Below the pieces are notes generated by a model. It was not told the DNA's origin. It ran no database searches and saw only the letters and a list, made by a program, of their open reading frames with translations. Both the position numbers and the translations under genes were made by a program. Positions 24,462-27,110 of a stretch of DNA of 64,000 nucleotides are shown one piece after another. The stretch's first letter is position 1. Each line of letters begins with the position of its first letter. The stretch is taken from NCBI RefSeq assembly GCF_003334305.1, contig NZ_QOWS01000007.1; one strand, written 5' to 3'. The stretch comes from Escherichia coli (GTDB taxonomy: Bacteria; Pseudomonadota; Gammaproteobacteria; Enterobacterales; Enterobacteriaceae).

Positions 24462-24604
24462 TTGCTGGTCTGGTTCGCGGCCTTTCCAGCAGGTTGTATT
24501 ACCGTAGTAATGCAAGCGCGTCTCAGCGGAGACAATACTCGCCAGTAACTCTCTTTTTGTCAAGCAAAAGAGAGTTATTATTGTTCTGTTAGTGTATTAT
24601 CCAC

Positions 24605-24908
24605 TGCGGCCCTTTCCGCCGTCTCGCAAGCGGGCGCTGGCTTAAGGAAAGGATGTTCCGCGACCGTTAGAGCAAGCGCGTCTCAGCGCTTGCTATCGCG
24701 GCAATATCGCCAGTGGTGCTGTCGTGATGCGGTCTTCGCATGGACCGCACAATGAAGATACGGTGCTTCTGTATCGTACTTATTGTTTCTGGTGCGCTGT
24801 TTTCCCAAGTAAATAATAACCGGAGTCTCTCCGGCGACAATTTACTGGTGGTTAACAACCTTCAGAGCAGCAAGTAAGCCCGAATGCCGCCCTTTGGGGC
24901 GGCATATT
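24605..24908 (+). ncRNA. ryfA: RyfA small RNA locus; 5' boundary approximate
   Basis: About 490-bp gap between sseA and sseB with no long ORF; plus-strand terminator at 24886-24910; ryfA placement here is from memory. Confidence 0.45.
24752..24877 (+). CDS. candidate small hydrophobic protein (41 aa) inside ryfA; possible alternative start at 24740 (45 aa)
   Basis: ATG...TAA ORF MKIRCFCIVLIVSGALFSQVNNNRSLSGDNLLVVNNLQSSK ending 8 nt before the terminator hairpin; only a weak SD (GGA). Confidence 0.3.
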   Translation: MKIRCFCIVLIVSGALFSQVNNNRSLSGDNLLVVNNLQSSK

Positions 24909-24910
24909 TT
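24886..24910 (+). terminator. rho-independent terminator at the 3' end of ryfA, overlapping the sseB stop
   Basis: gccgccctttggggcggc hairpin followed by atatttt. Confidence 0.6.
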
Positions 24911-25719: not shown

Positions 25720-25820
25720 ATGCCTGATGCGCTACGCTTATCAGGCCTACAAGGGATTCGCAATTTGTTGAATTTGCAGAATTTGTAGGCCGGATAAGGC
25801 GTTTACACCGCATCCGGCAT
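25720..25820. repeat. two REP units in inverted orientation (BIME-like) between sseB and pepB
   Basis: gcctgatgcgctacgcttatcaggcctac ... gtaggccggataaggcgtttacaccgcatccggca. Confidence 0.7.
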
Positions 25821-25826
25821 ATTAGT

Positions 25827-27110
25827 TTACGCCGTTAACAGATTAGCTATCGTGCGCACACCAAGTCCCGTAGCGCCCGCAGACCACTGTTCAACCGGCG
25901 CTTTACGGTAAGTCGCCGAGCAGTCGATATGCAGCCAGCCTTGCTGATAGTTCTCAACAAAGTGCGACAGGAAGCCCGCCGCCGTGCTCGCGCCTGCCGG
26001 ATACGCCGCGCTTCCGGTATTGTTCAGTTCGGCAAAGTTAGACGGCAGCTGGCTGCGGTGGAACTCCGCCAGCGGCAGACGCCAGAATGGTTCGTTCTCT
26101 TGTGAGGCACTCGCCAGCAAACGACCGGCAAGCGCATCGTCAAAACTGAACAGCGCGTGATAATCATTACCCAGCGCAGTTTTCGCCGCCCCGGTGAGGG
26201 TCGCCGCATCAATGATCATTTCCGGTTTCTGCGCACTGGCATCAATCAGACCATCGGCAAGCACCAGACGCCCTTCGGCATCAGTGTTCATCACTTCAAC
26301 TTTTTTACCGTTGCGATAGGTGATGATATCGCCCAGCTTGAACGCATTGCCGCTAATCAGGTTATCCGCACAGCAGAGGAACAGCTTCACGCGCTTGTTC
26401 AGTCCGCGCGTAATGGCAAATGCCAGCGCCCCGGTAACCGTTGCCGCGCCGCCCATGTCCGACTTCATCGAGTCCATAAACGCAGTCTGTTTGATGCTGT
26501 AGCCGCCGGAGTCAAAAGTGATACCTTTACCTACCAGGCACGCGTACACCGGTGCTTCTTTATCGCCAGTTGGGTTGTAATCCAGCGCCAGCAATACCGG
26601 AGAACGTTCTGAACCGCGCCCGACGGTGTGCAGCCCCATATAACCTTGCTCACGCAGATCTTCGCCTTTGGTGATCCGATAAGTCACACGATCGCCCGCG
26701 ACGTTGCTGATCAGATCAACAGCACGCTGTGCCAGTTGCGATGGTCCCAATTCTTCTGCCGGTGCGTTGATGGTGTCACGCACCCAGTCGATGATCATCA
26801 GGCGGTTATCCAGTTCCTGGCGCTGGGCATCGTCCAGATCCGGCCACTCCACTTTACGCGTGCCTTTCGGGGCTTTGTAACCTTGCCAGAATGCCCAGCA
26901 GCGATCCGCATCCCAGCCTTCACCGCTTAACTGAACATGCTTGATGCCCAGACCGTCAATCTTGCGCGCCGCACGCTGGATCAGCCCCAGATCGTCTGCC
27001 CCGTTCAAATGCAGGGTAATGCCGTCATTATTAATGCTGTAAGTTGCTTTTTCTCCCCAGCGCGCGTCGGCAGGTTGGGTAGAGAGGGTAATCTTCATCG
27101 CTTCTGTCAT
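25827..27110 (-). CDS. pepB: peptidase B (M17 aminopeptidase), 427 aa
   Basis: Start at [18 protein letters not shown] (track ORF is a 29-codon extension); NTDAEGRL motif. Confidence 0.93.

Follow-up and report, generated by a model that had tools for sequence, protein, structure and literature searches.

RNA sequencing of Shigella dysenteriae revealed divergently transcribed small RNAs of ~100 nt, RyfB1 and RyfB2, upstream of each copy of ryfA (Fris et al. 2017, PMC5333039). The complementarity between RyfB and ryfA spans a 5-nt "variable region" and RyfB1 is specific to RyfA1 (PMC5333039). In Salmonella, ryfA encodes the toxic membrane peptide TimP (Andresen et al. 2020, PMC7667032). [quoted passage not shown] The TimR site is harbored by the hairpin SL2 of the Salmonella mRNA, the loop of which is protected by TimR (Eleftheraki & Holmqvist 2024, PMC11228461). 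A pseudoknot between SL1 and SL3 is essential for translation of Salmonella timP and is disrupted upon binding of TimR to the pseudoknotted conformer (PMC11228461); the full structural switch of timP has been described (Eleftheraki et al. 2026, PMC13000454). TimR has also been detected by Northern blotting in E. coli CFT073 and CH138, in an APEC study that found little effect of timR deletion and questioned the importance of the peptide (PMC13188913).

Here, a direct repeat of 17 nt was analyzed in a 64-kb window of E. coli DNA, the window being the whole stretch of 64,000 nucleotides that was available. The two 17-mers are very probably the two halves of the RNA-RNA recognition site of a timPR type I toxin-antitoxin locus. 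The TimR/timP (RyfB/RyfA) pair is already known and hence is not novel; it was described in 2017-2020 and its mechanism worked out in 2024-2026, which leaves little weight to the locus as a discovery. The diversity of the seed alleles, the putative orphan copies of timR and the deletions that look repeat-mediated are modest leads.

The sseA-sseB interval and its direct repeat

The locus is the sseA-sseB interval of E. coli, in which 24416 is the last position of the sseA ORF and sseB is encoded on the minus strand from 24909. The identity of ryfA was established by a full-length match (24606-24910) to Rfam family RF00126 with 317.9 bits against a gathering score of 80, and that of the timP ORF by a match to NCBIfam NF040796 (toxic_TimP) with 79.6 bits against a cutoff of 45; a TimP of ~38-41 aa with a hydrophobic, signal-like N-terminal segment is expected of a timPR locus. 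RefSeq has timP at the homologous position, and the locus is present in all 5,426 complete E. coli genomes. An in-frame ATG precedes the annotated timP start by four codons, lies inside SL4 (24740-24751) and opens an ORF of 45 aa; the start used by RefSeq and in the Salmonella work is the ATG at 24752. In the neighboring sseB-pepB intergenic region, positions 25743-25832 matched naRNA4 and ES036, two REP-derived RNA families, below threshold, and are probably an ordinary REP element. The features of the locus are as follows.

24433-24460, both strands: bidirectional intrinsic terminator of sseA (plus) and timR (minus), from the inverted repeat and folding
24433-24527, minus: timR gene, encoding the predicted TimR antitoxin sRNA of ~95 nt, 5'-GCUGAGACGCGCUUGCAUUAC...GGCGGUUUUUU-3', by homology to b4811
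24512-24528, minus: copy 1, the predicted 5' seed of TimR, complementary to SL2 of the timP mRNA, from the exact 17-mer, duplex energy and covariation
24535-24540, minus: putative -10-like hexamer of the timR promoter, GAGTAT, with a 17-nt spacer; three of six positions match the consensus
24546-24577, both strands: perfect 12-bp palindrome in the divergent timR/ryfA promoter region, outside both predicted RNAs
24558-24563, minus: putative -35 of the timR promoter, TTGACA, in the palindrome loop, assigned from conservation
24606-24910, plus: ryfA RNA, the timP toxin mRNA, ~305 nt, full-length match to Rfam RF00126
24635-24641, plus: candidate SL1-side pseudoknot element CGCUGGC, assigned from the sequence only
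24672-24693, plus: copy 2, in SL2 of the timP 5'UTR, the predicted TimR binding site, hairpin GCAAGCGC-GUCUCA-GCGCUUGC
24709-24715, plus: candidate SL3-side pseudoknot element GCCAGUG, overlapping the second repeat block, on the same basis as its partner
[quoted passage not shown]
24884-24905, plus: intrinsic terminator of ryfA/timP, from the Rfam match and a terminator scan

The 17-mer GCAAGCGCGTCTCAGCG, to which the first-pass annotation had drawn attention, is found on the plus strand at 24512-24528 (copy 1) and 24672-24688 (copy 2). Both occurrences are exact and, with up to two mismatches allowed, no other match was found in the 64-kb window; the number of matches expected from shuffles was 0.02, and two matches were obtained in 0 of 100 shuffles. 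Copy 1 lies ~80-95 bp upstream of the ryfA start. Copy 2 corresponds to nt 67-83 of the ryfA transcript, where the Rfam model places a hairpin at positions 68-87. The first-pass description of copy 2 as a hairpin was accurate: the segment 24672-24693 (ryfA nt 67-88) folds at -17.3 kcal/mol, and copy 2 covers the 5' arm, the loop and the first base of the 3' arm of this SL2 hairpin. The two copies had further been assigned to one intergenic region; the spacing of 160 bp from start to start is correct, but the region is not a single empty stretch, as copy 2 is inside ryfA and copy 1 is inside a gene on the minus strand.

A related tract ending in cgccag had also been reported after each copy, and it was recovered as a second collinear block in which CAATACTCGCCAGT (24533-24546) aligns with CAATA-TCGCCAGT (24702-24714) at 13 of 14 positions with one gap, an alignment score that was not reached in any of 2000 shuffles. 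Collinearity between the timR gene and ryfA nt 1-110 extends over three blocks, namely GCGGCC(C)TTTCC, the 17-mer and CAATA(C)TCGCCAGT. The upstream copy of the second block overlaps the -10 and spacer of timR and lies outside the predicted ~95-nt TimR, and the downstream copy corresponds to the SL3 arm with the candidate pseudoknot element GCCAGUG. This element is complementary to CGCUGGC at 24635-24641 over 7 bp, including one G.U pair. The second block is confined to the A and B alleles of Escherichia and does not occur in O157-type alleles or outside this genus. A remnant of duplication or conversion is one possible explanation of the block, and a function in a minor, longer form of TimR is another.

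The timR gene, its predicted promoter and its terminator

The RefSeq record of K-12 MG1655 contains timR (b4811) on the minus strand as a 100-nt ncRNA described as "putative small regulatory RNA TimR", which begins 17 nt after the sseA stop and has its 3' end at the sseA terminator. The K-12 alignment carries b4811 over collinearly to 24433-24527 of the minus strand of the window. The 5' end of TimR, GCUGAGACGCGCUUGC, is the reverse complement of copy 1, and its 3' end is the U-tract of the sseA terminator. The minus-strand RNA that the first-pass annotation had postulated over copy 1, ending at the sseA terminator, thus corresponds to b4811, and the proposed pair of a toxin mRNA and an antitoxin sRNA is upheld by the homology to b4811, the TimP family match and covariation across genera. 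The term "cis-encoded" used there is a misnomer, since timR and timP are divergent and non-overlapping.

The terminator had been described as bidirectional, and its structure agrees: positions 24433-24460 form a symmetric A6-stem-T6 element which folds at -24.2 kcal/mol on the minus strand, and in Rahnella the stem shows a compensatory change from CCGCC/GGCGG to CCACC/GGTGG. The -35 (TGTCAA on the plus strand) is invariant in all 18 aligned loci from seven genera, at a distance from the seed that is fixed within 1 nt. Escherichia, Rahnella and Yersinia share a NANTAT hexamer at this 17-nt spacing, and in the window the seed and the predicted +1 start seven nt downstream of the GAGTAT hexamer. 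A simple promoter scan of the window did not report the timR promoter, the -10 of which is weak, and a simple terminator scan of the window missed the sseA/timR terminator, the A and T runs of which were absorbed into the stem; the assignment of both features therefore rests on conservation and folding.

The transcription start had been expected at 24590-24610, which is ~65-80 nt too far upstream. The +1 of TimR in this strain is placed at 24527 or 24528, an assignment based on homology to the 5' end of b4811, on the TTGACA and -10-like hexamer, and on the end of the conserved pairing described below. The placement bears on the palindromic hairpin that had been noted between the two copies of the repeat. 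Its arms (24546-24557 and 24566-24577) are indeed 100% complementary, with the -35 of timR in the 8-nt loop, but it is predicted to be untranscribed DNA of the divergent promoter region and not an RNA hairpin. The A- and B-type alleles of Escherichia carry the palindrome, which is partly conserved in E. whittamii and is missing in O157-type alleles and the other genera; a role as a lineage-specific operator is possible.

The architecture of TimR is shared by 15 loci, each with a single-stranded seed, a small hairpin, a near-invariant stem-loop and the terminator. The internal stem-loop (24466-24494, GCUGGAAAGGCCGCGAACCAGACCAGC on the minus strand) is near-invariant from Escherichia to Yersinia, Rahnella and Pantoea, and the seed is variable. 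Conservation of this stem-loop without covariation suggests a protein-binding or other sequence-specific role. The stem-loop is similar to the complement of the ryfA 5' end. A second contact between the TimR body, GGAAAGGCCGC, and the ryfA 5' end, GCGGCC(C)UUUCC, was considered and rejected, as no covariation was found and the ryfA end varies between genera; the local similarity of the two segments is weakly above shuffles (72 of 2000).

Rfam holds no TimR family, and the matches obtained on the timR strand (AgrB, RNAI, rimP and IS128) were sub-threshold and driven by the terminator. Membership of TimR in the AgrB family (RF02891), the antitoxin of dinQ, was rejected, the match at 24430-24511 of the minus strand scoring 29.8 bits, below the gathering score of 40. 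The match reflects a common shape of stem-loop plus terminator and is no evidence of membership. The locus of Pantoea latae (L023, 1439-1519) gave an AgrB match of 40.7 bits, just above the same gathering score. Matches of this kind could lead to the annotation of TimR as AgrB by mistake.

In the proposed mechanism, transcription of the plus strand would yield the ~305-nt ryfA/timP mRNA (24606-24910) encoding the 41-aa membrane toxin TimP, and transcription of the minus strand would yield the ~95-nt TimR (24527 to 24433) from a divergent, non-overlapping promoter with its end at the sseA terminator. The single-stranded 5' end of TimR, as the reverse complement of copy 1 and hence of copy 2, would pair with the loop and 5' arm of SL2 and open this hairpin. 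Opening of SL2 would in turn destabilize the SL1-SL3 pseudoknot, and without the pseudoknot the 30S subunit would fail to initiate at the SD sequestered in SL4, so that no TimP would be made while TimR is present. Repression of timP and the role of the pseudoknot are proposed here by analogy with the Salmonella and Shigella homologues, and TimR is presumably expressed in this strain.

Covariation, seed alleles and alternative readings

Conservation of the pairing was evaluated in a scan of species representatives with the conserved SL4/start-codon pattern, which returned 23 loci from Escherichia, Citrobacter, Superficieibacter, Pantoea, Erwinia, Rahnella and Yersinia in which ryfA was confirmed by Rfam. 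One scan match, in a Selenomonas MAG (L015), was without a ryfA match and was left out. The comparison with Salmonella was drawn from the published papers, the scan being without Salmonella loci. Among the 20 species-level loci outside K-12 with sufficient upstream sequence, 17 carry a same-strand upstream copy of SL2 at -75 to -97. The sequence of this copy varies from genus to genus yet matches the ryfA of the same locus. The proposed pairing had been declared refutable beforehand by related genomes that retain ryfA but not the repeat. The survey gave no such refutation, the three loci that lack the upstream copy being the deletions described below.

For the covariation count, the 5' end of TimR from each of 17 loci in seven genera was joined to its own SL2. 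In the 19-bp core helix 97.5% of the cells are paired, and 11 of the 19 pairs have changed on both sides, with 60 compensatory cells; these values were reached in 0 of 500 shuffles, a control that overstates the significance because the loci are phylogenetically related, and covariation in a direct repeat could stem partly from gene conversion instead of selection on each RNA. When the register was slid by 1-3 columns, pairing fell to 30-49%. When the register was extended, pairing was at background past column 10 (position 24527 of the window). This end of the pairing coincides with the 5' end obtained from b4811 and serves as an internal control on the TimR boundary. Differences between the two copies within the helix comprise ~20 G.U cells against 8 unpaired cells, of which seven are at one end of the helix, a wobble bias that points to selection on RNA pairing over DNA identity.

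Pairing between the two copies, as the first-pass annotation had predicted, was also evaluated by duplex energy. A full-length RNAduplex calculation gave -74.6 kcal/mol against a shuffled mean of -56.5 and was set aside, as it consisted of meaningless long-range pairings; seed-restricted duplexes and the explicit column counts were used instead. The seed-restricted duplex of the window TimR with its cognate SL2 has an energy of -35.9 kcal/mol, and -11.6 to -24.6 kcal/mol with the non-cognate alleles of E. coli. Over all alleles, cognate duplexes range from -34 to -36 kcal/mol and non-cognate duplexes from -12 to -25 kcal/mol. Among the fetched alleles at least three seed types of E. coli were found, each matched within its own locus. 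In the B allele (the window and MSB1_8G) timR and SL2 both carry GCAAGCGCGTCTCAGCG, in the A allele (K-12 and EcN) both carry GCAGGTG(C/T)TTCACAGC, and in the C allele (O157:H7) both carry CAGGCACCCCACAGTG. The A and B alleles differ at five positions of the 17-mer.

The species without the upstream copy are Citrobacter amalonaticus (L024, 8069-8340), Yersinia similis (L018, 4554-4837) and Yersinia aleksiciae (L025, 5125-5409). The sequence identified as ryfA in these species begins with sequence of the TimR body and continues into the 3' half of SL2; the fusion of timR to ryfA at the repeat is in register in C. amalonaticus and Y. similis. In the fused alleles ~160 bp are missing, including both promoters and SL1, and the TimP ORF is intact; the allele of Y. 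aleksiciae is also without the SL2 loop. The three loci were rejected as counter-examples, being deletion derivatives fused at the repeat. Their sequences look like the products of recombination between the two direct repeats. In Y. similis the Yersinia sRNA Ysr224 (RF02770, 133.9 bits; L018, 4361-4467) lies directly upstream of the fused allele.

K-12 MG1655 contains ~326 bp of extra DNA in this interval (L001 1157-1555, compared with 24417-24605 of the window), comprising a 25-nt remnant of the ryfA 5' end, the "IS128" region (Rfam RF00125, 261 bits), a second terminator and a second timR. The two timR units of K-12 are in tandem, with the 25-nt remnant and the "IS128" region, an old candidate, between them. 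The proximal unit, at ~2653724-2653820 of the K-12 minus strand, has the same sequence as timR of the window, promoter and terminator included, and is unannotated in RefSeq. SL2 of K-12 ryfA is of the A type and matches the distal, annotated timR (b4811). Against this SL2, the proximal timR-B has 5 differences in 17 positions, equivalent to two mismatches and three wobbles, and a duplex energy of -24.6 compared with -35.9 kcal/mol. The frequency of each allele in the 5,426 E. coli genomes is given below as per-allele genome counts, not as genome-level intersections.

Allele; genomes with timR; genomes with SL2 (of 5,426)
B; 4,548; 2,910
A; 2,020; 1,971
C; 580; 384

The counts of A-type timR and A-type SL2 nearly agree. 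The excess of B-type timR amounts to ~1,640 of the 5,426 genomes (~30%, K-12 among them), which would seem to carry a second, non-cognate and unannotated timR. No feature annotation was found under the A, B or C timR matches in the E. coli genomes, PGAP not calling timR and leaving it unannotated in nearly all RefSeq genomes of E. coli. It is conceivable, if rather doubtful, that the timP leader and timR are kept matched by exchange of DNA between the repeats, beside compensatory mutation, and that such exchange gives rise to new alleles and orphan antitoxins. This suggestion is based on the three collinear blocks, one of which is outside TimR, on the deletions fused at the repeat, on the three or more matched alleles and on the excess of B-type timR. 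If it is true, an orphan TimR-B could buffer the cognate pair, interact with it by cross-talk or act on separate targets. Antitoxin cross-talk could be studied with the natural specificity series formed by the A, B and C seeds and with the common, apparently orphan copy.

Other readings of the repeat were weighed against recognition of SL2 by a ~95-nt TimR. The antisense RNA could instead start at ~24590-24610 and extend over ~160-175 nt, with the palindrome as an RNA hairpin and with ACUGGCGAGUAUUG included, in which case the latter would also pair with the SL3 block (24702-24714) and mask the pseudoknot arm directly. Such an RNA would accommodate the non-random second block, which lies upstream of the predicted +1 and is unexplained by selection on a 95-nt TimR, and would be in line with the several TimR bands on a Salmonella Northern blot (PMC7667032). 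It is nonetheless improbable. The simple promoter scan gave no promoter-like site on the minus strand near 24600-24650, the conserved TTGACA and hexamer put the +1 at 24527/24528, and the columns of the alignment beyond the end of the conserved pairing at 24527 are at background. Moreover, the K-12 annotation is of 100 nt, Shigella RNA-seq gave ~100 nt, the pairing site in Salmonella is the 5' end of TimR, and both the palindrome and the second block are absent from O157-type alleles and other genera.

The three-block collinearity of the timR gene with ryfA nt 1-110, together with the in-register deletion alleles that show recombination between the copies, would also be expected if the repeat were no more than the remains of a local duplicate of the 5' region of ryfA, perhaps kept similar by gene conversion, with no function in RNA pairing here. 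This is very unlikely, since the differences within the helix are mostly wobble-compatible and the homologous Salmonella pair was validated by compensatory mutations (PMC7667032); an origin by duplication is in any case compatible with a present function. The same wobble bias, which indicates RNA, speaks against an interpretation of both copies as DNA sites for a sequence-specific protein that might, for example, form a loop across the divergent promoters. Although identical sites 160 bp apart do flank a promoter region with a palindrome, the repeat varies freely among alleles and genera while remaining matched within each locus, which is unexpected for the site of one protein, and a candidate protein is not known; we regard this interpretation as scarcely credible.

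Comparison with known type I toxin-antitoxin loci

The assignment of the 17-mers to a TimR-SL2 pairing places the locus closest to timPR of Salmonella Typhimurium, of which it is an ortholog with the same RNA family (RF00126), the same toxin family (NF040796) and a divergent, non-overlapping sRNA. Both share complementarity of 17-18 nt between the 5' end of TimR and SL2, more than 60 nt upstream of the RBS, and candidate SL1-SL3 pseudoknot elements are present in the window at the sequence level. The two loci differ in that the seed is another allele and in that Salmonella has STM2534 between sseA and timP, whereas TimR of the window ends at the sseA terminator. Toxicity and repression have been demonstrated in Salmonella, while the locus of the window is known from its sequence.

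The RyfB/RyfA system of S. dysenteriae resembles the locus in its "variable region", which corresponds to the difference between the A and B alleles (five positions in the 17-mer). S. dysenteriae has two complete tandem copies of ryfA in contrast to the one matched pair of the window, and RyfA1 was treated in that study as a non-coding regulator, the peptide not being detected (PMC5333039).

More distant parallels are provided by tisB/istR-1, shoB/ohsC, zorO/orzO and dinQ/agrB, in which the antitoxin gene adjoins the toxin gene in divergent orientation and ~18-20 nt of perfect complementarity are located in the toxin 5'UTR, far from the RBS. Such divergent pairs appear in DNA as a direct repeat, and a direct repeat between a 5'UTR and the adjacent upstream DNA is a reliable signature, available from sequence alone, of a divergently encoded type I antitoxin. 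The sequences and toxins of these four systems are unrelated to timPR. Their toxin mRNAs need nucleolytic processing, in contrast to timP, which is a purely structural switch (PMC11228461).
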